From Nageia nagi (taxonomy: Eukaryota > Plantae > Pinophyta), in assembly GCA_050084985.1 (NCBI GenBank), contig JBITNC010000001.1:181040001-181104000 (forward strand): DNA of 64,000 nucleotides, in the 5' to 3' direction. Under the pieces are notes generated by a model that worked only from the letters and a program-made list of their open reading frames with translations, did not search any database and was not told the DNA's origin. Shown one piece after another: positions 9,281-55,610 of this stretch (the stretch's first letter is position 1; each line of letters opens with the position of its first letter). The position numbers were made by a program, and so were the translations under genes.

Positions 9281-9339
9281 TTTTCAGATTCCTCCTTTTG
9301 GCACCACTCAATTACCTCCAGTCACTTATTATCCACCTA

Positions 9340-11350: not shown

Positions 11351-11428
11351 CGAGTATTGGATCTGGTGTAGTAGTGGTGCATTATCGGTTTCATACACAA
11401 GTTGGCCAAATCTAGGATCTTATACCAT

Positions 11429-30400: not shown

Positions 30401-33400
30401 TCTATCACACTTAAAAAATATTATGATCAAATGCTAATAAAAATGCTAGGGATCTTGATATGATTACAAAATATTGGGTAGGTTTGAGAGTATTTATGTC
30501 CTACCCTAACTGAGAGAAGGATATGCTATAAAAAGGTGGGCACAAATATGTTATTGTGTTTTTAGTTACCCCTAAGATTAAAATAAGTGGAAACTATGGT
30601 AAAACACTTAATATGTGATTATGTATCATCTTAGTTATTTAACTCGAATAAATAGAAGATAACTGATATAACATGAAACAATAAATAACCTATATGAATA
30701 TAACAATCAAGTAACAAACCTAGGTTATTATATCAAAGATAAAAAAGTACTAAATGCACACACAAAAGAGATGAGATTTGGTGAAAGGTAAATACATGAG
30801 TCCTTACCTATAAGAAGTCGATTATATGAATATAAGAACTTATTGAAGATATGTGACCTTGATGTGCAAACCCCATGGACCACAGTAGAAAGAATGGTAG
30901 CACAGATTCCTATGATAGTATGGGTGCTAAGTCCTAAACAATAACATAGGCATGCACGATAGCATAGATGCTAGAAGTTCAATCGAGTAGAGTTCGCCAG
31001 CAAGGATTGAAGTATAATAGAAGATCAACAAGTCAAGCCAAATATATAATTGTAAAGTATGGAATGACAAATATGCTTGTGATAAAAAGATCTCAATCTC
31101 AATACGAGACATTTAGAAATACCTAACTTTGAAGTGGCACTGGCTATCAAAATTATAATCTTGATTACTTTCCCATGTAATCATACTTACCTTTATATAC
31201 ACAAGATATCTTCCAATTTACCTTTAGGAAGTCTAGCACCGACGTTGTGGTACCTAACATAAAAATAAGAAGATCATATGACAAGGACTAATAATAACAC
31301 CAACAATATGATATAAGATCAATGTGGTATAACACCTAAGCGAGGACACCTTAGGGTGACCAAAATTAGGTTTCAACAAATATTAAGATATTTCATTTAT
31401 AATGAATTTAGAGAATGTTTTAGTATGAATAAAGATAATTATTTGTGAAATAAATAAGAAAAGGGTTTTATAATGTGATGAGATTTCTTTGAGAAATAAA
31501 TAGGAGAACTAATTGAATATTATTCTTTAAGAAAGAAATAGGGAACTAAATCATGATATTAAGTTATGATATTTCTTGAGAAATAAATTTAAAAAAGGAC
31601 TTATTTATATGATAATATTTTCTTGAAAGGAAAATAGGGAAGTGATTTGTTTAATGCATGATTAATGATTCATTAGAAATTTAGGAAACATTAGATCATG
31701 GTAATTTTAGAATTAATAAATAAAGAATTATTGTTTTCTTAAGTAATTATTAGCTAGTATATGTATACTAAACAATAGAAAATTATAGCTAAGTGATGAT
31801 ATTATTCTAGAGTTAGAAGAATAATATCGAGTTAGTAGTTAAATTTCATGTTTGAGAAAATAATATAAGAAATAAGATTAAAAAAGGTAAATTATATTAA
31901 CTTCCACTCGAGACCAACTGATCTATGGGACAAACAACTTGTAGTAGGCTATTACATAACATGTATGTCTCAGTGTTAAACATTTCATAAAGAATGAAAT
32001 GGGAAAATAAATTTTGTAAATGAATACATTTATTTATTAAAAATATAGAAAAAGAAATTTATGAAAAAAGGAATTATGTAGAGTTTATTTTGTGAAAATT
32101 AACTTAGGTGCCTTTTCTTACCATAAGTAAAAGGAATTACTAGGTTTTATCAAGTGGATTAAAACATAGAGAGGAATATGTATATAGAAATGATTATGAA
32201 GTATTCTTGTATTTTAGTATTGAGTAAAATATTAGATTAAGTTGAATAATCATAGGATATTGATAAAGAATTTTTGATGTATAAGATTTAGGATGTGCAT
32301 GAAGTTCTTATTAGAATATTTTGTTATGCTATATTGAAAGAAATTCTTGACTTGTGAAGTTATTTGAAATCTATTTAGAAGGAAATAAATTTGTGTAATA
32401 CAATATTATGTCCTTTGAATACCTTTTTTTAAATATTTTAGTTGTTAATATAACCACCTTGTCAAGATTGGAGTTGTGTTGAAAATAAGGAAGTAGTACT
32501 AGATTGAGATTGTGTTTTTTATTAAAATAAATTACTTAGCGATCCAAGATAAAAATTTAGACTAATTGATACTTATGGTTATGAGTAGATAAACATATAA
32601 AATGAATATATTTGGTTCTATACAATGATAAATCAATGAGGTTTTTCATTTGATGTAAATAACTGATATCTTGGATAAAGTAAATTATTAAATGATGAGC
32701 CTTGAGGTAATATGTTGGTTACATAAAGTGATTGAATATTAGGGTACTCTTGTGATTTAATAATCATGAAAATTTAATTAAATTGTTGAATTGATTTCTT
32801 ATTCTTTTGATGTTTGAGAATGGACCTTATGTAACTTTGATAATGATGGAATGTTGTTAATGTTTCCTGCAAGAGTCAAGTAGATTATTGATTGTCAAAT
32901 CTTGAAGTTAATGAAATGTTTATAAGGCAAGTTATATTATCTTGAGTTGATATCTATGATTTAATTATGATTTGAAATTATTGAGATATTATGGGTTATG
33001 ATAACAAGCCTATTATCATGTAGGATGGATTGCTATTCACCAATGATCATCATGATGTTTTGATCCTATGTGGAAAAAAGGTTTAAGTATTATATTTGAT
33101 ACATGACTTGGTTGATGCATGGTAAAATATCAATGCTTCTAAAGTTGAATGAATCGAGTAATGAACATAGATGCATCATTGGTATAGGGTGAGTATACCA
33201 AGTGATGAAGAGTTCATGAAGAATGTTTTATTGAAAATGCATCTTGACGAACATTGCTTTGTGGATAGTTGTGAATTACTTTGGGAATTTTTCAATGATT
33301 GAAATTGAGTTTGTATTCAATGTTGATTGAATTTGAATGCACAAGTGCATATACATTTTAAGTTATGAATATCAATGAAAGAGATCTCTCCGATCCCTAC

Positions 33401-33528
33401 ATACTCTACTACTCTTGGAACTGACCAATAGGAATGGATTGGTGGAGAAAGAAGGTTTAAGACCTTGAAGAAAATGATATCTTGTATTTACTTGTTATGC
33501 AAATGTAATTTGGTTGATTGTATGGATT

Positions 33529-33870
33529 CATTAGTATAAAAGTAGCAATATATGACTAAATAAACTACTAAAAATTGTAGATGAATATATATTTTTTATC
33601 ACGTGACCAATAGTAGTTTATTACCAGTTATTTATCTCATGACCAAAGTTATGACTAAACTATGTTAGTCATTTATTTGATTATTTGATTTAATAATAAA
33701 TTTAGTTTAGTATATTTAATCATTAATTTAATCATATATTTAGTCATGAATTTAGTAGTATATTTAGTCATTAATTTAATCATATATTTAGTTATTAATT
33801 TAATCAAATATTTAATCATTGCATTAGTCATAAACTTAATCATTTTTATTTATTGATTACCATTAGTTGG
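33529..33870. repeat. CACTA left TIR and subterminal repeat field
   Basis: Many ttta(g/a)tca(t) and atgactaaa copies in both orientations. The same motifs occur at 50280-50360. Confidence 0.8.
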
Positions 33871-34299
33871 TAATAAATAAAGTTATGAAATAAATAATTT
33901 ATTAAATACCATAAATTTTACAATGCAAAAATAACATAATATTAAACTTGAACTAAAAAGATAAAAGTAAATAAAATATTACACATTCGAACAAGATACA
34001 CCAAGCTAAAATTAAAGGATTGATTTTTCATGATAAATAAAGGTAATGTGCAATTAAAAAATATTAATAGAAAAATGCATATCAAATTATAATATGTCAA
34101 AGATGTCTAAAAGTGTATATGTAAATATAATAAAAAAATGTCAAAATTGTATAAGATTTTTCCACTTTTTCAAAAATACCTTTATAATTAAAATCCTTAA
34201 ACAACAAAAACAAAATTCTACATAAAGCAGTGAGCCATGATGTCTAACAACTAGTACATAATAAACATGTTGATCAACTATGCAGTCATTTTTTGCAAA

Positions 34300-36430
34300 T
34301 ACTTTAGCGGCCATCATGTGAAGGATCCCTTTTTCTCTTTCAGGAGAGTAGCTCCATCTATTTTGTCCTCATAAGCAAGAGGTACATTACTTGTAACTTT
34401 TAAAATGTTTACATTTGCATCTCTTGTTCCTTTCAAGTTGACTCCATGTATAATTGATATAGGGTGAATTCATCCAATGCCCACAACATCATTAAATGAA
34501 TCTAATACCTTAACTTTATCCCCCTCTTTGAGTTTATCAATACATTTATGCATAAATAAAAAGAATAACAAAGTATATAAATAAGTTAACAAAGGAAAAT
34601 AATATAACAATCGTTACCATGCACATATAGCAGACACATAAGATTATAAGATTATTGTTATGCTTAGAAACTATTTAAACAAAATTTGCATATCATTTCA
34701 TAAGTAAAATATAATTCCTTAGAAACTACTATATTACCTCAACACAACTATTATTGGGCTACACATTCTTTTCCACTAGTTCATGATCACTATCAATATT
34801 GGTATGATCTTTGTTGGCATCAAGGTGTTTTTAATTTTTTGTTGCTTTGATAAAATTGTTATGCATGTAGTTAAAAGAGATTAAATCTTAATAAAATGAT
34901 ACTTTCAATAATGCAAAAGATATAGTATTATGAACCAAACTTAACACATCAATAAAACCTCTTACTTGATTTGAATTTGTGGGATTATGGTCATTCCATG
35001 TAGCAACTATAGGCTAAATCAAGGATGTCAATTGTGAAACTTGTTCAGTAAGAGACTATGTAATAAACTCATTAAATGTTGGTAGCCTTCATTTGAGTTA
35101 GCATGATTTGGAGTGGCTCTTACTCGACGTTCCACATATGGTTGTGAAATCTCTATTGGTGAACTAGATTTCCATTTCATACTACTCTTAGATTTTGTAG
35201 GATCTAGTGCTGCCATATAATTGATAATATCTTCAGCACCTGCCTCTCTATTATTGTTTTCTACCTAAAGTACAATGTTAATTTCACACATAGTCAGTTC
35301 AATAAAAATTTGAAAAAAATAATACAATGTAAATTGAACTAATTTAAAAGCCATACACTTACTTCAAATTTGTTTATTTTGGCCTACAGCCCGCCTTGGC
35401 CAAATGTATATCCAACCCTCACATTCTCTCTTGCCTCTATTACTTTTGTTCAAATTCTCTTTGTAATGCATAATTTCTTTCAATGTCTTTCAATGTCTCC
35501 CATTGTTTGGAAGATAAGAGTAGATTCTAACCTCTTTTCCCTCCATGATTGTTTTTCTACAGTTGTATTTGAAATTGTTCATCAAAGTCTCATCTTATTC
35601 TTGTAATATTTCCTAGAGATTTTTCCACCAATGGTGTCAAAGGTATTTTCCAATTTTTTGTATAACATATACCACATGCTATGGATCTTGCTTTGCAAAA
35701 TTTGATTTGCAAATATCGAAATGAACCCAACTTGTTATGCCTAACTTGGAGGTCTACCTTGCAGCATTTTTCCCAATGGGTTCACCATCTCTTGATACCT
35801 CAACCACGAATGTTTCTTTTCCATGCCTCTTTATAGATCTATACAAATCTTGACTCAATTTCTTTCTTTTAACAAAAGCAGACACATATTCTATCGAACC
35901 ACTAGCAATAGGAGTATTCTAAGGCACGTCAAATGTAAACGAACTCTCTTCAAGAATTTCATTAGGCTGCATATCACCATGTGCTTTATCAAGCTGCACA
36001 TGACCAAGTGTTGTATCAGGTTGAACATCAACATGTGCTATATTAAGTTGCACATCATCATAACTACATTTTTCACCAACTACATTTGTTGGATCACACA
36101 AACATTGGCTTCTACGAATTGACAACATTGTATTTTTACCAGCTTACATATTTTTTCTCTTCATTTTCTGTATGATTTTTTTCTTTCCTGTAAAATAAAA
36201 AAAATCATATTATACATAAATATTTTTCTTATAAAATTTCATTAAATAGTATTAAACAAATAATATACTACTTAACAGATTTACAACTTACCTATTTGAC
36301 AAACCAAGATGCGATAAATATTCATTATTCTTGGCCACTCATTCTTTATGAAAGCGTTCATAACCTATCATTGGAATTTCAGTATTACAATCACTATCAT
36401 CTAATTTGTGCCTTAAATTTTTTCTCCCCA
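34300..36430 (-). pseudogene. CACTA second ORF (TnpA-like), multi-exon remnant
   Basis: GKETFVVEVSRDGEPIGKNAAR*TSKLG...VIQK at ~35820-35650. 9-aa-spaced DVQ repeats at 35950-36065. cttac/ct(a/g) splice-site complements. Lies downstream of TnpD. Confidence 0.55.
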
Positions 36431-37439
36431 TTTCCTGATGTCCATAAAAATAAGAATGAATAAATTAACAATTTGATTATTAGATAATTAAACGTAATAG
36501 AATTTGCATAAATAGTACATAAGCTTTGGAAAATCAAATGTATGCTCAATTCTTATTTTGTACTTATACAACCAAATCCTAGAAGATATTTATTTCATAT
36601 CAAAATATAATTATTTGTACCAAACCCATCACAACATACAATAAAGAATCCAAAGTGCACAATAAATTTCAACAAAATAAAAGTATTAAGCACCAAAGAC
36701 ACAAATTAAGCAATATACTTCAGGTTCAATTGCATTGAGCGAATCATCAGATATAATGGCCCAAGGTAATGCTACTCTCTTTTTCATACATCTCAATAAC
36801 TCAAAAGGTAAGTGATCTTCAACTCTCTGAAAAGAAAATTGATACAAATCATCATTTATATCTTAACCAGGAACCAGTTCTTCATCTTTAGGTAGTTAAG
36901 AAAATATATTTTCCTTAGTATTCTATAATATCAAAATGTTTCCTGAATTATCCAGAATAAATAGATTCAGTAATGTACATCATCAAGTGATAAATGAGTC
37001 CAACTCAAATTTATTACATAAGGCAAGTTGTATTTAGTATGAACTTTTCTATCATTTGACTCCAAAATTGTCAAGCTAACAAAATATGTTAGTTTAATGT
37101 AAAGTAATGTAATATGGCTAATGTATTTCTCTAATGTTCTTAATCAAGTATGTTTTCGTATCAAGCATGCAATTACACTATATTTTCTTGATACATTGTG
37201 CATTCATGTTTCTTGACTTGATTTGTTTTGTTTAAGTTAGATGAGATGGCTCACATTTTGTACATTTCGAGGCAAGCACACTATATTTTGTAGGAACAAA
37301 GAATTAATCATGTCTTCTGGTGTGATGCCACTCTTGTTGGAAAATCAGTCTCTTAGGAAATTAAGAATAAATGTTTCTATGACTGTGTGAGCAATTATTT
37401 TTAAAAAATAGTCTGAATGAATCTCAGTCTCTGTGGTTG

Positions 37440-37650
37440 TGTGAGGCATTTTGTAAAATAGTCAAAAAATACAATTCTTGGACAACACACTTAAATTTCA
37501 GTGAGGCATTTTGTCAAACAATTCATGGACTCTTCCAATGTATCCATTTTGTGCATATCATGTGGCCTTGGAAAGTGGACATTATATCAAACAATATATG
37601 GATCCTTTTAAGGTGAGTGTGTCCATGAGGCATTTTATCAAACAATTAAT
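37440..37650 (-). pseudogene. PPR motif scraps inside the CACTA
   Basis: Minus strand YAQNGYIGRVHELFDKMPH (~37500-37560), plus two more gaggcatttt (..KMP) copies at 37443 and 37627. Confidence 0.6.
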
Positions 37651-38189
37651 GGAAGCTAGAAATAACTCTCAGAACAGCTTCTTTGTTTAGATTGCTAAAG
37701 AGACAAGTTAAGACTCATTTTATTTTTGATATTATTAGAATAACCACAACTATTCCACAAATGCAGGAATACAAAAGATCAATTATAAATTAAGTAATAC
37801 AGTTCACATCATATCCTGAATTAAATTGCACAATGCAACAACAAAATTGTTCAACTAACATATGCAAGATTAACATCAACCAGTAATATTGCAATTGTAG
37901 GAAGCTGGAAAAAACTCTTAAAATAGCCTCTCATAATCAACTGAAGCCCAATAAGGCACCATAACTAGCTTTTTTATATTATTGATGAGAATGTAGAAAT
38001 ACAAATTGAAATTAAGATAATTGTGACATGTGATGGAGTAGGTAAATGTTGCTGCAAAATGGTCTTTCAATTTTCTTTCAGTTTGTTGAAGAGAGGAAAA
38101 CTATTATGAAAAACTTAAAACAGATTAAAGTACTTTAATGAAAATAGATTAAAGTACACAATAAAAATTCTGATTGCTTCAAAGTCTCA

Positions 38190-38422
38190 AAGAGTAGTTG
38201 AAAATAGTTTTTCATCGAATTTTGTGGTTGTGAATACTTGATAAATATGCATGTAAAATGCTAAAGAATACTGAAGGCACGGGAAATGTTTGACGAGATG
38301 CATGATGTAGACACAATTTCATGGACTGTAATGATTGGAGGATAATGGCCACAACAAGGATACCCTTAAACTCATTAATCAGATGAAGCATTTGGGAACC
38401 ACCCTATAACAACATAACCTTA
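38190..38422 (+). pseudogene. PPR gene fragment (paralog of 47770-48010)
   Basis: QRVVENSFSSNFVVVN...AREMFDEMHDVDTISWTVMIGG...NKDTLKLINQMKHLGT. Confidence 0.85.
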
Positions 38423-38749
38423 ACAATAATTCACACATTTTGTAATATATCTGGTTTAAAAGTTAAATGTAGAAAAAATAAAATAAAAAAACAAAGAACA
38501 TTTCATGACTTTATTTATTACCAATTGTAGCATACAATATTATTTTGCATATGTTTCTTCAACAAAGCTTTTCTTTTGAAAGTATAACACATATGACTTC
38601 AATATCAGGTCATTTCTTTCAATAGGGGTCAACTCCAAACATTTTTTATAACTAAGAAATGAACAAAATTTTATCTAGTGAATATGGTGTTACATATGCT
38701 GAACATTTTCATATTTTATTTATTTCACTTGCATATCTACCTCAAATAG

Positions 38750-40960
38750 AAATATCATGTATCTAGTAAGTTTTCTAGGAATCTTGATTAGTCATGTATG
38801 CATCTGTTTGATTTTCTTCCTCATCATCATTTGCGACATGCAATACATTCTCTCTCACAATCTATTCTTCAAACAATCCCTCATTATCTTCATCCACTTC
38901 TTTGAATGTTTCTTGTAAATTAACATATTGCCCATTAGGCATTACATTAATAACTTCTATGAATTTCCATTTCAAATGAGACTCTATTTGAATGACATAT
39001 GACCAATCTGGGCTTCTCACATAATCAATTATAAATGATTGGTTAATTTGAAGAGGGAAAACATACGGCTCATCTGACGTTGATAAAAATTATCATGTAC
39101 AATTTGTACTATAGATGGTCAGATCCATTTACATTTTAATAATATAGGACTGTTTTCACCAAAATCGAATTAAATAATTTCTTGAATGAATCCAACATAA
39201 AATCTCATCTCAATTTCATGCAAAAATTCAGCACTAACAACACAATCACAATTTATCTTTCCTTTGTCATTTTCTTCCACTCTTAAATGACTATCATAGG
39301 CTGACATTCTACTAAAATACATAACCCATACATGTGGACAATGTGAAAGCTCACTTTACTCTATTGTTATATCTCAACCTTTTTCTTTTGCATCATTGAT
39401 TGCATTAGCAATCCATTCTTCAAATTTTGGAAAAAAATCACCTCTAATCAAATCATGACATCGACGCTTTTGAGGTTAATGTTGCATCCAAGTTTGATTC
39501 TCTTCTTCATATTTTCTACATAGAATAATGATGTACAAATATTAAGATTAAGATTACAAATATGTAAATGCAATTGAGTAAATAAAATATTGAGTAATTT
39601 TTTTTTACCTTCACCACTTATCAAACGAAGATGTGTTTTGAAGAATAAAGGCATGTATTACACTTCTTTCTTGAAATGATAGCTTGAAGCGACATCCATT
39701 TCCTTCTAATACTTCACCTACAAATCTCTCATCTTCATCATCATGCCACACATGTGGATTGACATTTTTAAAATCCTTCATATATTTTGTGCAAAACTCC
39801 ATGGCCTCTTGCATTGAATATCCCTTGGACATGTTGCCTTCTAGTTTTGCCCTAGTACGGATAAATTTTTTAAAACCTTTATATATCTTTCTATAGGATA
39901 CATCCATCTCATTTTTAGTGGGCCACAATGCTCCAGTTCATATTCTAGGTGTATCAAAATATACATAGAAATGTTAAAGATTATTGGTGGAAATTCTCAT
40001 TCCAATAGAAAGAGGACTTCAACAACCTCCTCCCTCAAACTATTAACGTTCAAAGGATCTAATACATGTAAACTCATTCTCTTTAACATTATACCCAACC
40101 TTATAATTGCCAATCTTGGTCCCTTTGTCAAACCTGATATGTTTATTGCAATAGGTAAAATATTCGCAATTATGACATGATAGTTGTAGGTCTTGAGGCC
40201 TCTTAAGCTATTAATATCACTTTGGCTTCTAATGCTGCTACTAACATATCCAATGGGAAAGTGAGTCTGAGACATCAACTATAAGAATTGTGTACATTAT
40301 TCTTTTGTCGATACATAAGGAGTACTAGGTTTTCTATATCTTTCATTATCACATTTTTCAACCCAAATATTTCTATGAATCTTTATTTCTCGAAAGTCTT
40401 CATGTGATGAAATAGTATCAAATGCACCAAAAAGAGTTTCTATGATAACATAAGCTATATTTTTCTTAGTATGCATAAAGTCAACAATATGCCTAATGGT
40501 TATATCCTTAAAGTATGGCAACTTATATAATATGCAAAATTTGAAAGATTATTATCAAATGACTTAATTTGAAATTAGCATACACAGGCTTTAAAGCATC
40601 CTCCATTGACTTGGCCCAATCATTGTTTAGACCCTCATTCAACATTCTATCAACTTCAAACCCTTTGTTAAATATTTCCACCTCTTCATCTATGTTTGTT
40701 GCCTCTTTATCTCTCACAGTCTGCAATTCTATCATATCTTCATAATAATTGTAAGCCCAGGGGCTTATGCCACTGTGCCCATATCTTATCATATGTCGAT
40801 AAATCACATTTCTTTTTTTCACCTTTCCACCAAGATAATATTTACATAGACATGGATATTTTTCCATGTCTATCTTATTAGCTACTCTCTCATCATATGC
40901 ATGATATTGGTTTGTAGTCATCCTTCGACGCTGGTCCATCAATAATATTCTGCATTCCAT
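38750..40960 (-). pseudogene. CACTA transposase (TnpD-like) with an internal deletion of the core
   Basis: N-terminal PCLCK..V.RHMIRYG, then LPYFKDITIRHIVDFMHTKKN, GLKTYNYHVI, AKLEGNMSKGY (DUF4218-like) and YVGFIQEI...KCKW...DEPYVFP (DUF4216-like). Confidence 0.9.
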
Positions 40961-41758
40961 TTTAATTTAGTTTACGATTTCAATAAAAAAATAGAAATTT
41001 GAAAAGAAAGATACGAAAATAATGTTGAAAATAGTCACGTTTAGTACAAACCATAAAAGAAAGAAAGTAAGCAATGAGGTTTTGAATTACCTCTGAATTC
41101 ATTGTAGAGGGCCTCGCTGACTCCAAATTATTCACAAACTTTGAATTCCTCGCCCACCTTTTCAAAAGTCTCCAAGTCCCATCTGCATAAGCTTTATCAC
41201 CCATGCAAGTGCTCTAATACCTGTCCATGATATTAAAAAATATTAAAAAAATTCAACTTCACTCTCATGCTTTATGTTGATAAGATAAAATCTATGTAAT
41301 TTTATTTTTAAATTCATAGAAAAAATGGCAAAACAGCTTGAGGGAACAGTGTCATGGATGAATTAGTAAATAATATATATGAAATTGGTAAAAATTATTA
41401 ATAAAACTATGTTTGTATGATGCATACATGTCTCACTGCGATCATCTACAAAGATAAATAATTATTTCAATATTTTTTCTTGTAACAAAGTATAAGGTGC
41501 AAAAATAAATAAATTTTTAGTGTTTGATAACAAACCTGTAGTGATTGCAGATTTGTCTGAGTATATATTCATAATTTGTACTCTGTGTTGACATACCTTC
41601 TTCATGTTTTATGTAGGCACATCAGCTTGAGGGTACCATGTGATGGATGAATTAGTAAATAATAAACATTTATTATCGCAGGATATACACAAAATGGTTT
41701 ATTAGGATATTACAGCAGCTTGTGTTTTATACTATTAGGGACCTTCCTGTGTTTGAAG

Positions 41759-43660
41759 TTTCCTTTTGTATCCCAAAGTGGAAAAATAAAAAAATTGGTA
41801 GCCAATCACAGAGATTCAAATGTTTCAAAGCTGGAGTTTCTTGGCTTACCTGGAGCAGAGAAATTTGAATTAACTACAAAGTTCTGTTATGGTATCAATT
41901 TTGAAATCACGACCTCAAATGTGGCTTCTCTTTTCTATGTCATCGAATACCTTGAAATGACAGAAGAATATGCTGAAGAAAATCTAGTTTCTTGAATAAA
42001 AGCATATATGGAAGAAGTTGTAAGTCAAACCCTTGAAAAATCCTTGGAATTCTTACAAAATTGTGAGAATCTGCTTCCTTTGGTAGAGGAATTGAAGATA
42101 GTGAGTAGATGAATTGATGCGATTGATTCCAAGGCTTGTAGAGAGAAAATGGCATCAAGTTTGTCACGGTTAGACTACAGCAGTTCGGGTCATCTCCATA
42201 GTAATGGTCAGCCAAAGAATTTGGGAGATTGGTGGATTGAATATATCTCCATGCTTTGTCTTGACATGTACTAGAGAGTTATAGGAGCTATGAAATCCAG
42301 AGGTGTATGACATGAGAGCATTGGGGCATCGCTTATGCATTATGCTCAGCATTCTCTGAAAGGATTGAGTAAGAAGCTAAGCGTGTGGGATTCCACTACA
42401 AAAGCAAATATAAATGCTGCTACAACCATGGAACATGAACAACAGATACTTGTGGAAACTATTGTGAACCTCTTGCTTATAGAGAAGAATTCAGTGCCTA
42501 TAAGCTTTCTTTTTGGGTTGCTGTGCACTGCTATAATGCTTGATACAACTATAGCTTGCAAGCTTGATATTGAGAGAAGGATTAGTTCACAACTAGATTT
42601 TGCAACCCTTGATTATCATCTCATTCCATGATTCTTACATACTTCCTAGGATACCTTTTTCGATGTGGACATAATTCATTGAATACTGAAAACGTTTTGC
42701 AGCAAGATGACAATGAGGATCAGATGGATTCTCATTCTGTTTATGAATCTGATGGTATGGGTTCCCCATCACAAATTGCAATAATAAAAGTTGCAAAGCT
42801 AATAGATGGCTACCTTGTAGAAATTGCACCAGATGCAAACCTAAAGTTGTTGAAATTCATAGCCTTGGCTGAAATTTTACCAGATTATGCACGTGTGGGG
42901 GATGATGGATTATATAGGGCCATTGATATCTACTTAAAGGTAACGTTTACATTTCTTGTATTTGGCAACCTATGTCTTGCATTTTCATTTCCAATAAGCA
43001 AAATCTTTGAGAGTTTCATCTTCTGTTAAGGTTAATTTACTATTGGTTTATATTTAAATCACTGTGGTTCTAGAAGTTCTCTATGCTATTTTTGTTAAGT
43101 TACAATTCTTTTTCTACCTATATTCTAGGCACATCTAGGGTTGTCATATATGGAGTGCAAGAAACTCTGTAAACTTATTGATTTTCAAAAGCTTTCACAA
43201 GAAGCATGTGATCATGCTGCTCAGAATGAATGCCTTCATGTCCAAGTTGTGGTTCAAGTGCTTTACTTCGAACAGTTAAGCTTACAGTATATTATTTGGT
43301 TCTCATGGAGATGGAGAACCAACAACAGTTTATCAATCTCAAAGGATTAGTAGTGGTGTTCTCACTGCTGCTATGTCTCCTAGGGATAATTATGCATCAT
43401 TAAGACATGAAAATAGAGGGCTCAAACTTATGATAGCCTGAATGTGGATGAGATTGAATAACCTTGAGAAAGAACATGTTTGTATGAAACAAAATATGGA
43501 AAAGTCCGGCTCTAACAAGTTTATGACCTCATTCCCAGCGAATTTGGGTAGAATGCAAATCTTTTCTTGTAACGATTCAAGAGATCAGAGTGCACCCTCA
43601 AAGCAATCACAAATGCATGATCCTAAATATTCAAGGAGAAAACGACATTCATTATCCTAG
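41759..43660 (+). pseudogene. NPH3/RPT2-like (NRL) BTB/POZ-NPH3 gene fragment; last two exons plus GT-AG intron 42940-43128
   Basis: ag|FPFVSQSGKIKKLV...PGAEKFELTTKFCYG...DWWIE...[13 protein letters not shown]|gt...ag|AH...CKKLCKLIDFQKLSQEACDHAAQNE...SPRDNYASL...TAG. In-frame stops (e.g. 41993, 42110) and frameshifts. 5' exons absent. Confidence 0.92.
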
Positions 43661-45319
43661 TCTGTAAATTTTTCAACTTTGAAAGGTTTGATATCACTCT
43701 TGCTTTCCATATAAGTGTAAAATCAATTCCCACAGAATAAACTGCAAATCTGAAGTCTTAGATCTCAATGACTTACAATGACTCACAGAACCTTGAAACG
43801 CATTTGAGGAATGCTATTTCTATTGCCAAGTCGATTTTGATGACTTGTATATCTTAATAATATTTCTGTGCAGGAGCATGTATTTTTCCTGAATCAAAAT
43901 AGTTTAATGGAAATCTGTAGATTCAAACTTACTTTTGTTAGAGCAATTGCTGAGTCAATAACATTATGTATTCAAAGGTCTAGACAATGGACCTTATATT
44001 TTCCCTTAGGTCGCTATTTTTCAACTCATCAAATTTATGAAACTTACTTTGTTCTATTTGCTACTACAATTTGCATAATATAGACATCTTGTTATTTTTT
44101 TTCTTTGGTGAAGGGATAAGGACAAAGATTTTATAGTTGACAAGTAGCATTCATATAATCAAACATTGGTAAAATAAGATAACGATGGAAAATAGACTTA
44201 TCACAAGCTAATGCTTGACTACTTTCACTTTTCTGATAAATTTTTACCGAGGAAATAATATTATGACTATAGTCTTTGTATGTGGGCACTCTTCGCTGCC
44301 TTGGAAATAATATTTTATGATAGAAACTCTTGATGATTCAAGGGAGAACGCTCACAACATAGCTATTTGCATGCCAATGAAGTTCTTACGATAGCAGTGG
44401 AAACTCATCCAGCTCTATCAATTTTGCCAAAATGGGTGCATTTAAAGACATTAAATCATAAAAGGATAAATTATAGTTAAAATGACATGCTATATGTTGC
44501 TATGATGTCACTAAATATAAACTTAACATACTTATGTAATTCATCACTTGATTCTACATTTAGAACTATTTCAAATTATGCTATACATTTGGGTAATATG
44601 TTTCATCTTGCCACTTTAAGTATTTTTCAATTTTCCACTAGTACAAAAATAGTATCCTATATCAGTTTAGGTATTTTTCAATTTTCCACTAGTAAAATTT
44701 ACTTAATTCTTGGATGACAAGAAGAAAAAAATAATATTAAATCTGCCTGAGGCTGGCATTGTTTGTCCTTTAAGTAAAGTTGAGGTTTTAAATATAAATG
44801 GCTTACTGATTCATTATATATTAATGGAACTTCCAAGTTGGCAGGAATTCAACATTAAGAAAATGTAAAAATTTAATAAACATTTAATTGCTCTCTTGAA
44901 TTGTGTGCACACACCAATTATGTTTAAAGCAAGCAGATTATCAGATGCAAAATTTTTATATAGTAAATCCAGACTCTGCAACCTTTGCCAACATTCTACC
45001 AGCAGGTGGCATAGCAGAAGGTATGAACATCCATAAAAGAGTAGTTGAAATCGGTTTTGCATCAAATTTTGTAGTTGTGAGTGCCCTGATAGACATGTAT
45101 GTAAAATCTAGAAGCTTAGAGAAGGCACACGAATTGTTTGACAAGATGCATGATGCAAACACAATTTCCTGGAATGCAATGATTTTAGGATATGCACAAA
45201 ATAGATACAATGAAAGGTCCTATGAGTTTGATAAAATTCCTCATTGAAACTTGAATCTCATTGAATACAATGATTGCAAGATATGTAAAAAATGGATTTT
45301 CTAAAAAGGCCCTAGAAAG

Positions 45320-47650
45320 AAATAAAGAAACTTTATTAATGTCCATGAGAGACCAAGAGCGATCTATGGGACTGTAGAGGGAGTACAACTGTATGTCATT
45401 GCTGGGAGTGGAACATGGGACACATGACATAGCAAGGTACACAATGACCAACTCTGCCAACTCTCTTGACTATATAGATGCTCTTATTGGTGCTGCTCAG
45501 CCCTCTTTGGCTAATGGTCCTATTTCTCTACAAGTTTTTCCTAATTATCTTGTCAGTATTGAATTAAAGTAGACAAATACAGTAGAGGATTAGCATAATA
45601 GCTAGAGGTGTAAAGCCCGTAAATCCTATGGATAGGGTGTGATATCCGTAGCTTTTCTTGAATTAACTCAAATGGAAACTGTAATTCCTGCTGGATAATC
45701 AGAAGTAGCAGGAATTACAGTTTCCATTTGAGGTAATTCACTCTGGGTTTCTGGATAAGTAGCAGGAATTACAGTTTCCATTTGAGGTAATTCAAGCAAA
45801 GCTATGACAACCACACCCTATCAACAGAATTTATGAGCTTTATGCCTCTGACTATTTTGCAACTCCTCTGAAAATGATGCTAAATAAACCTTTTTCATAA
45901 GAGGGTTGTGTATCTCACCACTATTATAATACAAATACTCCATATGACACATATAGTTATCTGTTTTACTAAGATCACAAATTTTCTGAAGAAGAAATTT
46001 GTGCTTATTTTTGCCTTCTTCCATTTGCCAATTACCAACAAATTAATTAATTAAGGCATTGTTAAAAGCAAGAAAATCCCTACGAAGAATACACTCTTTT
46101 TGAAGAGCTGGCAGAGTTTTCCACCATGTTCTCGGCAGCAAGCCTCTATAGGAAAATATTTAGAATCTATTTTTGATGACTTTATAGATCCTGCAATTCA
46201 AAAGGATTTATGGTAAGAACATACTTCTATTCAAAAACATAATGTATGGTGTACTTGTGATGAGTGCTTAGTTTCCCAAGGCTTACTTATTAAACCTGTC
46301 AAAACATATAAGCCGGATTTGCCAATAAGGCATGAGGAAAGTAAACAGTGGAGAGAAGAACATACTAAGATATTTCTTTAGTTTATCAAGAAGGCTCAAG
46401 CTAAAATAGAAAGCTTAATGGCAATAAGTGAGCAAGTTCTATTAGAAATAGAGTATGAAGCTAAAATTGCTAAAGCTTCCATTGCCATGAATAAGTCATT
46501 ATTCAAGAGCCCATTCCTCACATTATATTTTAAGTTTTCATATCTTAAGGCTTATCCAATTGACAACATGATAGATATAGGGGTAGATATATCACTTTAT
46601 CGTAAGTATGATATTCCTTTAGATGAATGGAAGCCTTAAGAGACGGTAATCTATTTTAATTCAAAAAGAGAGGTTACTCAGTCTGTAGCATACGTACCAG
46701 TCTTGATTAGCGAAGAAATAATTTTATTTAGATTTTTTTTATTTTGATCTACTCACCTATGATTGGCTAGTAGGCTCAGACAATCTGGAGCCTTACATGC
46801 AAGATACAAGTTACACCCATATAAGATTTAAAAATGGATCAGTTTTTCCTTTAACCAAAGAGTTTATTTGCAGATATCCTTTAGAAAAGGATATGAAAGG
46901 ATCTAAGGGAAAAAAATTAGGACGGATGGTTAACCAAATACAAGCCAATACCATTGATAAATATCTTATTTCTACAAAGATAAAAACTAATATGTGTTCT
47001 GACAATCCTCCAGCTTTCCGACATAGAAAAGAATATTTTTACAGGATTCAGTTGGCCTCTCCTTTCAAGTCCAAACCTCACCACAAAGGTATGATCCCAT
47101 CTCTAGAAAAAGAATGTCAGAAAGAGATTCAAGGTCTGAGTGAGAGTCCTAGAATTCCTCTTGCGAGTTGTGAAGCTCTCGTCCAGAGTTAGCAAGAGAA
47201 GTAAGTCGTAGTAAGTTAGCAAGACTCTCGTGGAGCTTGTGAAGTGGGGCACACTCCTAGCTGAACTAGTAATATAGGTAGTGTGGTATTGTTATTGATG
47301 GGATATATCCCTTATGAATTTTACATCCAGTTGATAGCGAAGAAGCTGAAGCTCTATGCTAAAGCTGAGTTCGTAAAGGTAATATACTGTATCTCATCTT
47401 TGTAAGAGTACAATCTGTTCAGAGAGGTATCCTCTCCCTTCGATTCAAGGTGTAAGAGAAAATCTTCTCAGATTTAGAGTGTGTCGATGACTTGATCCTT
47501 TGGGGATTCAATCCATTCCATACTGTAAATATACTATTTAATATAAGTACTGTTGTTTGACCCTACAATTCTACCGTGCATACATATATTATTTCTCGGA
47601 TCTATGTGTACTATTTAAATTACTTATTCTGGAGTAAAATATTGAGGGAA
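45320..47650. mobile_element. Rearranged endogenous caulimovirid (plant pararetrovirus) fragments
   Basis: + strand MP core LLMSMRD...DALIGAAQPSLANGPISLQVFPNYLVSI (45330-45565). - strand coat protein RTWWKTL...FLLQKICDL...YYNSGEIHNPLMKKVYLAS (45860-46140). + strand HNVWCTCDEC, protease MIDIGVDIS..IPLDEWKP and pre-RT CSDNPPAF.HRK...HKGMIP..CQKEI (46150-47135). Non-coding, intergenic-like 47135-47650. Confidence 0.85.
45597..45856. repeat. Imperfect ~96-bp inverted repeat with an internal 37-bp direct duplication
   Basis: 45597-45692 is the approximate reverse complement of 45761-45856. agtagcaggaattacagtttccatttgaggtaattca occurs at 45704 and 45758. Confidence 0.9.
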
Positions 47651-48869
47651 GCTTGACCATTTAAAAAAATGCAATTACTAAATATAAAGCCAAACTCTGC
47701 GACCTTTGCCAGCATTCTTACAGCATGTGCCACAATGGGAGCTCTAGAAGAAGGTATGTACATCCATAAAATGGTAGTGGAAAATGGTTTTTCATCGAAT
47801 GTTGTGGTTGTGAGTTCCCTGATAATCATGTATGCAAAGTGTGGATGAATACACAAGGCCCAAGAATTGTTTGACAAGATGCATGATGTAAGCATAATTT
47901 TATAGACTGCCATGATTGGAGGATATGCAATTCATGGGTACAACAAGGATGCCCTAAAGCTTTTTAATCTGATGAAACACTTGGGAACCAACCCTAACAA
48001 CATAACCTTTGTATATGTTCTATAACCTTTGTATATGTTCTACTTGCGTGCAGCCATGCAGATCTAGTGGATGAGGGTTGTAAATACTTGAATAGCATGT
48101 GTGATTCTTATTGCATTATTCTTGGGATTTATCATTATACATGCATTGTTAACCTTCTTGGTCGTGCAGGTTATCTTGGGGAAGCTTTGAACTTCATTAT
48201 CAAGATGCCCATAAAATCTGAATTGCATGTGTGGATGTGTCTGCTTGGTTCTTGTAGATCACATAAGAATGTAGGAATAGGGGAATTTGTGGCAACAATT
48301 CTTTGTTTATTAGAGCCTATAAATGCTTCATTTTGTGTTCTTATTTCAAATATTTATGCTGAAGTGCGAAGCTGGGATGATGTTCAAAGAGTAAGGACAT
48401 TGATGAAAAATAGAGGAATCAAGAAGATACATAGACGTAGTTGGATTGAAGTTGATAAAAGGGTACATGCTTTTCTTGTCGGAGATAAATAACACCCACA
48501 AATACAGGAGATCTATAGAAAATTAAAGAAATTATCTAGTGAGATGAAGGTAATGGGATATATTCCAAATACAATACCTATGTTGCATGATTTGGAGGCT
48601 GATGTTAAAGAATTGCTTCTCTGTTAGTATAGTGAAAAGTTGATAATTGCTTTTTGGTTGTTAAAGACCCCCCTGGAACCAATACTAGAGTTGTGAAGAA
48701 CCTTCGAGTATGCGATGACTACCATAATGTAACCAAGTTTACCTACAAGATTGTTGCAAGGGATATTGTTGTAAGGGATGTGAACTGATTCCATCATTTG
48801 AAACATGGAAATGATGAGTTCGCAACAAATGCAACACATAATGAGTAGGGTTTAATGAAGAAATCCTAA

Positions 48870-49500
48870 ATCGCTCTTATCAGTCTCAAGCAATACTGAA
48901 ATTTTCCCATAATAAATACATTACTTATCCACGTCTCTACCTCACGGAATTTTCTCAAACACATGCCATGAATCCTAAACCTCTACTTAAACTGTAAGCA
49001 CAATATTTTATAAAATTACAAAAAAAACAATCTTACTCTAAGCGAGCTCAAATCTTTACAGTTTTTTCAAAAATATATCCTTTTTAGGGCTAATTTGAGT
49101 TGAACGCCATACTTAATACCAAAAGAAAAAAGATAACGCGTTTAACAGGGAAAATTTATTGCCTATATATAAAGATACGAACACACGAATAAATAAAGAA
49201 GTTTTGGTACCTCCAATCAAGGGCAACTACTTCAACTTTGAAAGTATTCACCATTATTCAAAAAAATAGCGCAATCGTCTTCTTTTTCCTCAGCCTGCCA
49301 TAACATCTTGTTGAACACATTCTACTGGCCGTTAGGGTTTTCGAGGAATCGAGCTTAGTTATTTTTTCAATCATTTTTAGTTTAGCGCCATTCAACATTT
49401 TTAGTTTGGAACTTTCAAATTTCAGTCCGGGTTGAAATTTGATGTTTGCTCTTGCCCGTCAATAAATTTTTCATGACGGTTTCAATACTGTAATGCCCAT
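48870..49500 (-). promoter_or_regulatory. CpG-retaining putative CACTA promoter/leader
   Basis: Local cluster of CpG in a CpG-poor window. TATA-like tatatata at ~49164-49171. Lies at the transposase-upstream end of the element. Function is inferred. Confidence 0.35.
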
Positions 49501-49810
49501 CAATATACCTAATTTTTTTTTATGTTCTTTGAAATAAATTAATAATGTAATTAAATTATTTCTTTTGTAAATTAAATATAAATATTTTTAATTATATATA
49601 AATATTTTTAAATAAAAAATATGTATAAATATCAATATAATAATTATAATATTTAATAAATATAATATTTTTTTTACTATTATATATATTTTTTCCTAAC
49701 GGTAATAAGAAATATTTCCACTTCATATGTGACAGTTAATAAAAACAATTAGTAATAAAAAACATTTAAAAAGGTTACAAACATTCAATACGGGTGGCAA
49801 ATTTCAACCC
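49429..49810. repeat. Perfect 13-bp inverted repeat pair around an AT-rich core (MITE-like)
   Basis: gggttgaaatttg (49429-49441) / caaatttcaaccc (49798-49810). No clear TSD. Confidence 0.4.
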
Positions 49811-52800
49811 TAGTTTTAGTCTTGTCAATTTGAGTGTAAGCACTAACTCCTACCAATCACAAGAAGAAATGTTAATAAATTTTTATTAATATTATGTGGA
49901 ATAAATTATTAATAGCCTTTGAAACAAAGTTATTATTTGATATTTTACTAAAGATATTTATCCTTCAAATATTAATGTTGAATAAAAAAAGTTTTCACAA
50001 ATAAATAACCTTAAGGTATAAAATTTAGAAATTTATGATTGGTAAGTTACATAGAATAAATGTTGAGGGTCTTTATTAAAGGCATTTAAAGAAAATGAAA
50101 CTAAAAATAATTTGAATCAATTTCAAAATAAATAAAAGAGAAAGGTCATTCTTTAGGTAATATATTCACTTACCAAATTGTCGAAGCTAGATATTAATGA
50201 CCTAATATGTCTAAAGATACAATGATGCTTAAAATTATCATGTTTCTCAAATTACAGACCTTGTGATTTTACCTTATGAATAAATTAGTCATCTTTTTAG
50301 TCATTTATAATTATGAATTGTAAACAAATAGTACAATTTGATCAATTTTAGTCACATACTCATATATCTACCAAAATTCTACTAGTGATTTGGCCATAAT
50401 TTTTTCATCATGACATTACGTTAGGAGGTTTTATTGTTAGTAAACTTTTGTATGAGTGGTTAGTGGTGTGATGTCAAGAATATAAAAAGTTATTGTAAAT
50501 CATTATTGATCAAAGATATGTGGAGTCTATATCATTCATGGTCCATGAATTGTATAATTGTATAGATCGAATTATCACCCAAGTTGTTGATTTGATTTTA
50601 TTGATGAATATGTTTAATGCAAAAAGAATTATGAAATTTTTTTTATATCATTTTGGTGTTTGGTTACATGATAATATGAAAAATATATATACCACATGAT
50701 AATATAAGATGACATGATAAAAAATATATAGACAATGTTATGTGATGATGATGTTGATACGTGATGATAAGATAGCTCATGATAGTGCTAGGAGATGAGT
50801 GACTGGTCCTACTATGAAATTTTCCATACTAGATAACATCAAAAGGAGTTGGCTTAGGATTGACTCCTAAAATACCAAGATTAATGTGTTGATGAATGTA
50901 CTAATTAAGTTATGGATGTATGATTACTAAGATATACGATAGTGCTCATGTTGATGGTCAATGTTTTAATTAAAAAATTATGTGATGAATGAAAATAATG
51001 CTTTAATTATGATGATGTGCCAAAGGAGTTTGTTATATTCTAACACATTATCTATTCTCGACTTCACAAAACCCTAAAATTTTAGACCTATTTATTTTTA
51101 TTGAATTTAAGCACTAAATGGTGTAGGAATGGACAAGAAGATCCATATAAGCATATCAATGTTGCTAGTTAGTCAACACCCATATGGCAAGATTGGTCAA
51201 ATTTGAATTAACCAAACTTGATCAGAATTCTTCTGGTATTCACTTCTTAATGCTCATGATCCAGTTGGAAGATGCCACATAGGTGATCTCGCCATTTCTT
51301 TTCATGATTTGTGCAACAAACATTCTGGTCACAACTTAGTTATTTCCTACTTGGGTCCCATATCACCTGACATAATGTTCATCTAAAAGGTTATACATCT
51401 TTCCCTAATGGTAACCCTTTGATTCATAGGTGCATATAGATTTTCCTAGATAATCTTCCATATGAAATAGTTAAGCATCATTAACTATGGAATAGTCATC
51501 ATACCTCTATTTGCTAAACTATAGGTAGTAGCACTACTAGTTACCTTTCTATGGTAATTGTAGTTTTATTGATTGCTACCCTCATCCGATAATCTATCCA
51601 AGATATGACACTAGCCTACCCATATCTATTAGCTAAGTTCACCATGATGTTTGGGATCTCTATTCCCATATCTTAGGGAGCCATAAGTATAAGAATAATA
51701 CCCTAAGTGGTTTGTATAGTCTTAAATTTTTTAAGTAAGATTATAAAGAAAACCATCCCCACTCTAACGTTCCTAGAAATAATTGATCTTGGATCATTTA
51801 TTAGGTTTTGTATGTTTCATGCTTGAATTAAGCAGTAGGATGTTCTTACAATATACTTAAAAGCAAATAAATCACTTTTCACATTAATAAGCATGTTTGA
51901 TAAATGAAAATAATAAATTCATCAATCCTGCATAAAAAGTTTCATATAAGCTTATTCATGAAGCCATTAAAGAATATTCAACAATACTTTACTATAATAT
52001 CCCATATGCATGATGCAGTACAAAGAATATTACTTTAAAAGTCGATCACATACCAGAGAATAATAATAAGCCTTGGGATGCTTCTAAAAGTGGCTACTTC
52101 TATCAATAGATTGCAATGTAGAGTATAAAATACTCAAGGAATATATTTTGGTTTTCATCTTATGAACTTACAACAACAAGGGTTTGACTAAGTTTTCTTT
52201 ATATACAAGTGTCCTAATCATTTTTCAATTCATAACTTTTACTTAAACTAGTTTGTTTGTATGTTCATCACATCTAGTGATCAACTTCTAATATTGATTT
52301 GAGTACTCCTTTGCCTTTTACATTCCTTCTAGGGTTTTAGCTTCTTCATTAAGTTTCTTTATAGGATCACCTAAAATCCTAACATTTTATTTAAGCTTAA
52401 GCTAAGTACTAAGAACATTACCATATTATTCATTTCACTCGAAAGCTATGTAGGCAACAATTACCTTTATCATTTTAAGATCTTAAAGTTGTTTACAACT
52501 CCATCATTTCATTGTCTTAATGAGTCATTAAAAGTTTATTACCTATAAACCATTATATTTATTAGCATTAGGGAGATTCTCTTTCAACATCAAACTATCC
52601 ATGTACCTTAATATAGTTCATTAAATTCACAATAATCATATAATTAGGTTAGGGAATCTATTGTGATATTTACTTTGTATTTCTTATAATTTTAACACAT
52701 TAGGGTTCATGTATCATTATCTTAAATGTCCTTAATTTTAACATAGTCTCATAAATTATTTAGAAACATAATCATAGGATGAGACAAAATATACTTGGAT

Positions 52801-54358
52801 ATTGGATTATCAAAAATATCTTACAAATGTATCATGGATACAAAGGCTATCTACCTTGGTACATAAATTAGTACTTAATTAAATTTATTTTACATTTGAC
52901 TATATAACAATGGGTAATAACTTTATTCCATAGTACCCTAAGGTGTTTCATGATGAGAGCAATATGTCTAGACTTGGGTAACTCTAATTGGTAACTTGAC
53001 CATGTTTTACATCATAGTGTATGATGCATTTAATTACATGTGAGTTTCCATATAATGGACATAAGGAGTTTACATCATAGCTTTATTGAATTATATCATA
53101 GAAGATCTTTGATCCATCCTCATCCACTTGGTGTATCTTATTGACATCTTCATCTTGCACATTCATCCCAAGGATCCAAGACTTGTTGGGTGAAAGTACT
53201 AGGAGATATTTTTAGATTATTTGAGGATCCAAATAGCTCTTTCCATGATGTAAGGCATCCTACCCTAGGTGCATAATATCTCATTCATACAATCTTTCTC
53301 TTTCAATCAATTTCATACAAGGAAAAAATAATTAGAAAGGATAAACTCTATTCTTGATATTAAGAGGTTTTAGGTTCTCACTCGAACTACATCCCTTCCT
53401 CGATCATAGAGTAAAATTTCACCAATTAATATAATCATACCATCCAAATGCTTTCACATGCATCATTTACAAATTATCTTGAAATAGTAATTTTAAAAAA
53501 TTACACATGATAAATAAAAAGTTCAATGTTCAACCAATAAGAACAGTAAAAATCTCATAAATTCATTACCATGTTATAGGGGTAGTCATACATAGATATG
53601 TTTAATCATAAAATAATTTATTTTAAAAGAAATAATCATAGTTAGATCATTTAGATCTACCAAATAGTTTTATTATGAATTCTCCATTTCTTTTATTCCC
53701 TTAATTACAAGTTAGATGTAATAGCCATTTATTTTAGTAATATAATCAAGACTAATTTTAGAATTAAACGAGGATTTTGGAAGGGTAAAAATGGAGTTCA
53801 TATTCAAGCTATTTAAGATTAGGTGATTGCATATGATTTGCACTCATAAGGGTGGAAAGGATAATACTTACTATGGTTTCCATGATCTTAGTAAATCCAA
53901 CGAGCACAACATAAAATAAACATGATACTCAAGGGGTCTTCAATGCAAGCAGTGCACCACCATGAAGAGCTTCCCTCAACCCATGCTATGATGTCCTGAG
54001 ACATTAATACCTTATTTGTATTTGAGTACAAGATTATTCATATTAGGAGTAAAATAATATATTAAATTTTTTTGGATTCCCATATCATCCTGTGAATTTT
54101 ATTTTACTAGTACTTTTATTCGAAGTACCCTAATACACATGTATCAAACAAATCTAATTAGTATACCATTCATATGGCACAACTAAGGTTGGTCCACTAA
54201 TAGGAAAATAAATTATCCTTTAATATTATGAAAAAAATTTTAAATAAATAATTCAATCTTTTTAAGATAAATTATAAGGTCCAAAATTCAAATTCTCAAC
54301 TAGACTAAATATAAAATTGTTTACTTCTTCATTTAGATACCTCCAAACACTTATGGAA

Positions 54359-54800
54359 AAATTATACAATAAGTATACCCACCAAATAATTTTTAAATAA
54401 ATAGTTTCCTCCTTTTCTATATATAAACAAACTATACCACATGCAATAATAATAATAAAAATTTAAATAAAAATCTAAAAAAAAAAATTTCCTCAAATAA
54501 ATACAAGGTAGAGTACTATCTCTTGGCCAATATAAAATTAGTATGGAATTTACACCCATAAGTACTAAATCAAACATTGAGTAAATAAAATTTTCACTAT
54601 AAATACCTCCATATAAGGATAAATTATACAATAAATACACCCACCAAATAGTTTTCTCTTCTAGATACAAACAAACTATACCTTATGCAATAATTTTTTT
54701 AAATAAACGATTCCATTTAACTTCAGAAATATCAAACAAAATTCACCTCAAATAAGAACAAGGTGGAGTACTATCTCTTGGCCAATATAAAATTAGTTTG
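54359..54800. repeat. ~260-bp duplication within the chromovirus LTR
   Basis: gagtactatctcttggccaatataaaattag at ~54512 and ~54766. aaattatacaataa.ta.acccaccaaata occurs twice. Confidence 0.75.
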
Positions 54801-55339
54801 ACTTTACACCGTGAATTCACAAGACCATGGATTTTCTTTAATTTAATTTGTCTAATCTTTTCTCTAGATATTTACACATAGGTATGGACAAAGTATAGAA
54901 TACATTCACATGCAAATGTTGCAAATAATTACAAATATTATGTTCTCATAAGGTACAATTAATGTAAGGAAATTAATAACAATAAGCTTATTAATATTAT
55001 CACAAACTCTTAAATAAGCATTCCCTCCTTTAAATACATTGAAAATGGTCAAATAAAATTCAAAATTTAGACTAATGCTAAATTGCTACAAAAGCACCTC
55101 AAAAAATGGGAAATATGCCTTCCTTCATGGGTCTCCAAAATTTGGGAAGAGGGGGAGAGGTGTATGAATAATGATGATTTTTCTAATGGTTCTCCTAGGT
55201 ATTTATAACCAAAGGTTGGTATAGTCCATTAAAAAATATAACAATTTATCCACCTCACATTTTATTGTTCGTGAGGGATAGAGGGTTTTATTATTTTGTG
55301 GTAGAATTTTGACAAATTTGTTTGTAAGTACCAAGTCCT

Positions 55340-55610
55340 ACAAAATATTTTGCACACCTCATATTAGGCACCAAAATGTATAGAGAAGGTTTATCAATTA
55401 TTTTACACACCTAACATAAAATACCAAAATGTATGGAGATAGTCCCTCCATTATTTTGCACACCTATTACAAAATACAAAAAATAGTCCCTTATTTATTT
55501 TTCATACCTAATGCAAAATACAAAAATAGTCCCATATTTATTTTGCACACCTAATGCAAAATACCAAAATAACCTTACAACTACCATAAAATACCAAAAT
55601 AGTCTCTCAT
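55340..55610. repeat. Degenerate ~40-50-bp tandem repeats in the LTR
   Basis: ttttgcacacct...aaatac(c/a)aaaa repeated ~5-6 times. Confidence 0.7.

Follow-up and report, generated by a model that had tools for sequence, protein, structure and literature searches.

Captured gene fragments and a caulimovirid scrap nested within a decayed CACTA element of Nageia nagi

A 64,000-nucleotide stretch of the Nageia nagi genome (assembly GCA_050084985.1, contig JBITNC010000001.1, positions 181,040,001 to 181,104,000 of the forward strand; hereafter the window, in whose own coordinates all positions are given) holds a CACTA-type DNA transposon at 33529-50387, inside which lie pieces of an NPH3 gene, of a pentatricopeptide repeat (PPR) gene and of a caulimovirid. 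The locus raises the question of whether a transposon has been spreading an endogenous virus together with host genes, as the initial annotation proposed, or whether the pieces were assembled in a single copy. The anatomy is real and the processes are ordinary: this is a real element with real nested cargo. Spread of the virus by the transposon is unlikely. The reading that we favor, with a probability of roughly 0.6, is that the virus arrived late, after the element had come to rest.

Evidence on other copies came from three public sequencing runs (X1, X2 and X3) and one metagenome pattern scan, which yielded two sibling ends, L001 and L002. No more than 7% of the window's words occur in the runs, which represent relatives or shallow data; the comparison of reads covered 32300-49500 of the window, and the contig joints and pieces listed are 15 of 991 and 23 of 64,332. 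The termini of the element are laid out as follows.

33526-33528, no strand: left target-site duplication ATT, read from the sequence.
33529-33860, minus strand: CACTA 3' end, with a short terminal inverted repeat (TIR) and a subterminal array of 12/24-nt repeats (sequence, motif count, sibling L002).
48813-50280, minus strand: probable 5' non-coding region of the CACTA, placed by X3 depth, a family contig at 49141-49455 and its position upstream of TnpD.
50281-50387, minus strand: CACTA 5' end, with subterminal repeats and the TIR CACTAGTAGAA (sequence, motif count, sibling L001).
50388-50390, no strand: right target-site duplication ATT, read from the sequence.

The left boundary reads ATT and then, from 33529, CATTAGTA; the right one reads TACTAGTG, ending at 50387, and then ATT. 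The CACTA terminus is exact at the right end and in the sibling ends and is changed at base 3 at the left end, where the TIR departs from the family word CACTAGTAGAA at bases 3 and 9. The two ends match at 7/8 and 12/20 terminal bases. By simple arithmetic, a matching ATT has a chance of about 4% at 70% AT, and the window contains 16 loose CACTA-like 7-mer pairs with a matching trimer, among which the 33529/50387 pair falls outside the best 8 by 30-nt identity. Taken alone, the terminal match and the ATT are therefore weak evidence. The pair is singled out because TTAGTCA/TGACTAA words cluster at it (of the 16 in the 64 kb, 9 are no more than 300 nt from one end or the other) and because both ends have relatives with other flanks. 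When metagenomes were scanned with a pattern built from both ends, the two matches obtained were both sibling ends, in other flanks and starting with CACTAGTAGAA: L001 corresponds to the right end (93% over 46 nt, 84% over 73 nt) and L002 to the left (72% over 246 nt). The pattern had no match in prokaryote genomes. Two matches in viral contigs were dropped as chance, having no further likeness to the window, and two in the window itself were left unused as circular, the pattern having been built from the same ends. Together, the ATT duplication, the subterminal repeats, the transposase remnant described below and the sibling ends elsewhere confirm that 33529-50387 is one CACTA element, as first annotated, and the five internal junctions originally named were correct to within about 30 nt. 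A tandem array occupies 33665-33843 in the left subterminal region. At the other end, 48813-50387 retains CpGs (observed/expected 0.85 vs 0.2-0.36 in the rest of the element) and is matched by contigs of X2, a presumed RNA run; X3 depth is about 70 across 48946-49500.

One may ask whether the ends instead come from two separate insertions of the family, or from an aberrant-excision hybrid, with the block between them being, now or formerly, plain chromosome. A short imperfect TIR and a 3-nt duplication that chance would give in about 4% of cases would suit such an origin, and a hybrid route has been described for Pack-CACTA elements (PMC13317346). We consider it improbable, however: there is one left-type and one right-type end, correctly oriented to TnpD, with no inner ends, and both flanks carry the same G and TGA strand bias, as if the element had inserted into one host repeat. 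This flank repeat, a putative solo long terminal repeat (LTR) in the initial annotation, continues across two gypsy insertions, one with an AATAT duplication; it is repetitive, with a depth of 65-267 in X3, and no paralog of the flanks was found within the 64-kb window. One X3 contig tracks the left flank to 33524 and then runs into 45 letters outside the window, a hint of the empty site.

The body of the element, outside the captured pieces, consists of the following.

34000-36850, minus strand: multi-copy CACTA interior, a remnant of a putative second open reading frame (ORF), possibly TnpA-like (depth and family contigs).
36892-37465, no strand: low-depth insert (X3 depth 6.8 vs 90-120 on both sides).
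38865-40966, minus strand: remnant of the TnpD transposase, disrupted by stops and frameshifts and deleted internally at about 40537 (DUF4218, weak Transpos_assoc, X1 contigs).

The initial annotation had named remnants of both TnpD and TnpA, of which the former was confirmed. Within the TnpD remnant, which has 7 stops in 665 codons, Pfam recognized DUF4218 (E 4e-12) and, weakly, Transpos_assoc (E 0.03); Transposase_21 had no Pfam match there, which fits an internal deletion. This deletion, overlooked in the initial annotation, follows from X1 family contigs, two of which carry 109 and 794 additional letters at about 40537 that are missing from the window. Overall, the X1 family contigs differ from the element body at 362 of 4118 letters (8.8%). 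TnpA had no Pfam match in 34000-36850, a multi-copy and coding-like region that may resemble CACTA second ORFs. The element cannot move itself and, given this loss and the changed third base in one CACTA end, is probably fixed. The low-depth insert, which had no match in the window, L001 or L002, sits between the two CACTA coding regions and adjoins inverted PPR scraps; it may be a further captured piece. A 49-nt direct repeat (88% alike; 41327-41375 and 41616-41664) lies just ahead of the cargo edge.

What was captured? The host gene pieces are these.

37493-37653, minus strand: inverted PPR micro-scraps (alignment; the same words occur in L001 541-590).
38189-38421, plus strand: PPR scrap, 78-80% alike to the large PPR piece.
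41720-44959, plus strand: captured genomic NPH3 (BTB-NPH3) fragment (Pfam, alignment to protein P0004, donor transcript and genomic contigs).
44951-45318, plus strand: left half of a PPR fragment of the PLS class, stopping in the middle of a P repeat (Pfam, alignment).
47659-48812, plus strand: right half of the same PPR, with the remainder of the split P repeat, E, E+ and a DYW that lacks its last residues (Pfam, alignment, paralog contig).

The initial annotation had spoken of two unrelated host genes. The NPH3, PPR, E, E+ and DYW domains are indeed recognized (Pfam E 1e-23 to 1e-4), in broken fragments rather than whole genes. Positions 41744-43657 span residues 64-639 of the 639-residue P0004 with 8 stops (in 523 codons) and 2 frameshifts; the closest protein relatives are two at 85% and 79%, followed by Ginkgo (74%) and Cryptomeria (69%). 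The fragment begins within an intron, retains the GT-AG intron 42940-43128 and includes the 3' untranslated region and downstream DNA, and was thus copied at the DNA level, with the promoter and first exons missing. Its donor was seen twice. A 2484-nt X2 contig is spliced at the retained intron, extends 314 letters farther upstream and differs from the fragment at 136 of 2177 letters. X3 genomic contigs enter the fragment at 41720, within an intron, leave it at 44959 and differ at 245 of 3231 letters. The fragment therefore lies 6.2-7.6% from its donor, no more than the 8.8% that separates the body from its family contigs. The donor contig does not run on into PPR and, since NPH3 also lacks its promoter and first exons, the block between the ends is not one stretch of chromosome. 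These results support the view that the NPH3 and PPR pieces are non-native, DNA-level gene fragments inside one CACTA, in line with the earlier suspicion that they were not native to the locus.

A 2.34-kb caulimovirid insert divides a single PPR gene piece into the two large halves. A P repeat is broken at 45317-45318 and the same repeat resumes at 47659-47660; a paralog contig without the interruption links 45316 to 47684 with 28 letters between. The insert thus cut one PPR piece cleanly, and the longest direct repeat at the two virus-PPR junctions measures 4 nt. The PPR-E-DYW fragment and the smaller scraps had already been annotated, but not the fact that the two halves form one virus-split piece, nor the PPR scraps outside the element, at 7069-7131/12592-13187 and near 62.0 kb. 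Within the element there are three separate PPR inserts. The insert itself has the following parts.

45319-47658, no strand: rearranged caulimovirid scrap with no target duplication and no reverse transcriptase (RT) (protein matches, fold-back test).
45321-45569, plus strand: putative movement-protein piece, from a motif likeness.
45584-45869, no strand: 286-nt fold-back.
46156-45851, minus strand: presumed capsid-region piece (match to residues 665-765 of protein P0002, E 6e-6).
46337-47180, plus strand: protease region (E 2e-21 to P0002 and 3e-23 to P0001).
After the protease region, to 47658: non-coding tail of the scrap.

At the level of sequence, these matches confirm that 45319-47658 derives from a caulimovirid. 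The earlier description as a pararetrovirus held for its origin, which the protease match carries, and failed for a genome: the 2.34-kb scrap is scrambled and without RT, whereas a typical genome has 7.1-9.8 kb (PMC13308828). P0002 is a polyprotein with movement-protein, RT and RNase H domains and no integrase match, and the position of the match within it suggests that 46156-45851 may be capsid-derived. The nearest relatives of the scrap are a Taxus protein, the best match of the viral ORF, and P0002, which runs from movement protein to RNase H. Among 1.84 billion representatives, the ORF (46722-47189) finds 3 relatives, which are 36-47% identical to it. Neither RT-RNase H nor a tRNA-Met primer site is present in 45319-47658 and, in the absence of RT, a genus cannot be assigned. 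An RT at 57.6-58.0 kb, a candidate for the missing viral one, was rejected, as it lies between LTRs together with Ty3 capsid and protease matches. The movement-protein candidate found no support in Pfam, PDB sequences or pairwise BLAST, and an atlas comparison gave bacterial clusters at 0.90-0.91, with recognition below the reliable level. Homologs of 46055-46699 numbered 0 among 451 candidates, a search with P0002 recovered itself alone among 5544 candidates, and neither P0002 nor the window's viral ORF had a relative among the 30 and 14 pattern matches, respectively, in viral contigs. The fold-back has a z score of -12.5 (0 of 100 shuffles); its outer arms differ at 24 of 121 letters (80% alike) and its inner arms at 1 of 34, and a 40-nt direct copy differs at 1 of 40.

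Read depth bears on whether the cargo has spread. Depths here are summed over contigs and are not copy numbers; about 47% of X3 was read, and X2, presumed to be RNA, was disregarded in bins without cover. The median summed depth of body, NPH3 and virus was 18.2, 0.45 and 0.27 in X1, and 127.5, 8.2 and 3.2 in X3, so that in these two DNA runs the body was 16-40x deeper than NPH3 and 40-67x deeper than the virus. The X3 depth of NPH3 is explained by a single contig path at depth 6-8. L001 contains neither NPH3 nor virus within the 1.2 kb covered, and its interior differs from that of the element here. Given the far deeper body and this different interior, most members of the CACTA family lack the NPH3/virus cargo, a conclusion from an indirect test that would miss a few cargo-bearing copies. 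No second copy with the same cargo at another site was found in X1-X3 or in the metagenome scan, and depth speaks against many such copies; the virus scrap is likely peculiar to the copy described here. The sibling comparison that was proposed as a check has in this way gone against the original idea of a transposon spreading virus and host genes: as far as depth and one right end show, the siblings lack the cargo. That a whole family of loaded CACTAs took the virus scrap to many sites, along with pieces of host genes, is accordingly very unlikely. The family is multi-copy and occupies other insertion sites, and the runs may derive from species that split off before an amplification; against this, NPH3 and virus stand at or below single-locus depth in X1 and X3, beneath a body 16-67x deeper, the interior of L001 differs, and the viral protein has only the three distant relatives given above. 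Among the papers listed in our literature searches there was no report of a caulimovirid inside a CACTA.

When, then, did the virus arrive? Interruption of a single P repeat shows that it came after the PPR piece existed. Beyond that, we infer that repair mechanisms were at work, that no other copy has this cargo and that the virus was the last to arrive. A decayed, internally deleted CACTA would have acquired its NPH3 and PPR pieces when DNA gap repair switched templates; the virus scrap would then have served as filler DNA in the mending of a break within the PPR piece, most probably once the element was at rest at its present site. Late arrival is suggested by fewer stops in the virus (3 of 377 codons) than in NPH3 or TnpD, by the absence of CHG depletion in the scrap (0.99 vs 0.43-0.48 in the CACTA body), by near-identical short duplications inside it (2 of 74 letters differ) and by an NPH3 divergence no larger than that between body and family. 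The PPR stop count was discarded as an age measure because a frameshift inflates it. Dating the virus by its fold-back was rejected as well, the outer arms (24/121) disagreeing with the inner arms (1/34) and the direct copy (1/40).

Several points weigh against late arrival. The stop rates of virus, NPH3 and TnpD do not differ significantly; the outer fold-back arms, at 24 of 121, are as old as nearby LTR pairs; CHG content also reflects family history; and the dating hints are weak and at odds with one another. The runs share no more than 0.07 of the window's words, X3 was read to about 47% and depth gives no copy number. The read comparison covered 32300-49500, short of the right end and of the empty-site join, and among the 15 of 991 joints listed no contig bridges the cargo to link the CACTA body with the 5' region. 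In a second reading, the virus would have been present in the PPR piece beforehand, whether at the donor locus or within a parent element, and would have been carried along in the last jump by a loaded element that never multiplied. In its favor, all parts of the element are similarly decayed, the outer arms within the virus are 20% different, the virus bins in X3 have a depth of 2-6, and PPR pseudogenes outside the element also gather insertions (7131-12573 lies within one), which makes a virus-hit donor plausible. We regard this course as possible and clearly the less probable one: stops, CHG and short duplications hint at a virus younger than the rest, and no sibling or donor with the virus-PPR junctions was found in the runs or in the metagenome, viral or prokaryote scans. 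Should siblings sharing these junctions exist, DNA transposition would be added to the routes by which caulimovirid fossils multiply, which include reinfection, segmental or genome duplication and retrotransposon chimeras.

A further lead, and the most interesting one, concerns the PPR pieces. Summed depth in PPR bins reached 6,500 in X1 and 59,000 in X3, vs about 0.5 and 8 for NPH3, figures inflated by repeat motifs that fit several places; even so, PPR-like DNA is plainly very abundant, and its PLS-DYW-like form seems to make up a very high-copy repeat of the lineage. In L001, a different PPR scrap (70-85% alike) lies 0.9 kb in from the end, in addition to the same inverted micro-scraps (L001 1-309 and 541-590). 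Conceivably, the CACTA family repeatedly gathers PPR-DYW pieces and disperses them, thereby contributing to the large PPR load of the lineage, and in this copy also moved a virus-interrupted one, but this is doubtful. One PPR-bearing sibling is only suggestive, since 77 of 900 sliding 1.1-kb stretches outside the element also contain PPR and scraps occur there as noted. PPR proteins number 509-2131 per gymnosperm taxon (PMC9545813), and no report of PPR expansion by transposons in conifers was found among the papers listed in our searches. If the lead were true, CACTA activity would be tied to the way in which RNA-editing factor sequences have expanded in gymnosperms, and the virus-interrupted PPR would be a caulimovirid fossil carried by a cut-and-paste transposon.

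How unusual is such an element? The cargo CACTAs of Chenopodium (PMC8978399) and En/Spm-type elements have the same ends, subterminal repeats, 3-nt duplication and transposase domains, and a length of about 16-17 kb. In the Chenopodium elements the captured fragments lie in the 5' region upstream of ORF1 (PMC8978399); here, the cargo is likewise flanked by the 5' end on one side and TnpD on the other. The present element differs from them in its gymnosperm host, in 7.1 kb of cargo from two donors, in an internally deleted TnpD and in the nested viral scrap. Pack-CACTA and other Pack-TYPE elements (PMC8903248) likewise hold host coding fragments between CACTA ends and are non-autonomous. The element here keeps a transposase remnant and for this reason falls outside the operational definition of Pack-CACTA in that source; it works like one, but no second copy with the same cargo was found in the runs or the metagenome scan. 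Capture of gene fragments by transposable elements (TEs) in gymnosperms averages about 400,000 fragments per genome and involves all major superfamilies, and about 14% of capturing TEs hold two or more fragments (PMC13477047); the main text of that study, in the excerpts used, mentions neither PPR nor caulimovirid cargo. Endogenous caulimovirids of gymnosperms show the same fragmentation, rearrangement, lack of target duplication and TE-rich setting (PMC10377300). Caulimovirid DNA serves as filler in break repair, is often rearranged and is often found near TEs, according to the same source, and its fossils make up 0.36% of one cypress genome (10.64898/2026.07.23.736688). The scrap described here differs in lying within the cargo of a DNA transposon, the TE link drawn in PMC10377300 being one of Ty3/Gypsy with banana streak GF virus. 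Transposons commonly capture genes in conifers, where caulimovirid fossils are common too, and one would expect the two to meet in one element by chance many times per genome. The nesting in one copy, with a host repeat, a CACTA, gene pieces and a virus scrap, is a textbook case within a gymnosperm giga-genome, in which a single copy overstates both gene number and virus spread.

The remainder of the window is AT-rich, decayed plant repeat DNA. An element with 1.14-kb LTRs (7131-12573; 85% alike, TG...CA) is inserted in a second PPR pseudogene (7069-7131/12592-13187), and its interior had no Pfam match among the ORFs scanned. The same was true of a small element at 13490-16889, whose 0.72-kb direct repeats are about 88% alike and which is possibly a non-autonomous LTR element. 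A gypsy-type element on the minus strand (21051-31378; LTRs 80% alike, AATAT duplication) holds a 47-nt tandem array (22784-23151) and a 250-nt tandem duplication in its RT (26163-26654). To the right of the CACTA, a Ty3/gypsy element on the minus strand (51053-60979; LTRs about 82% alike) retains remnants of RT, RNase H, protease and capsid, and a copia-type gag remnant (Pfam E 6e-7) lies at 63277-63489.

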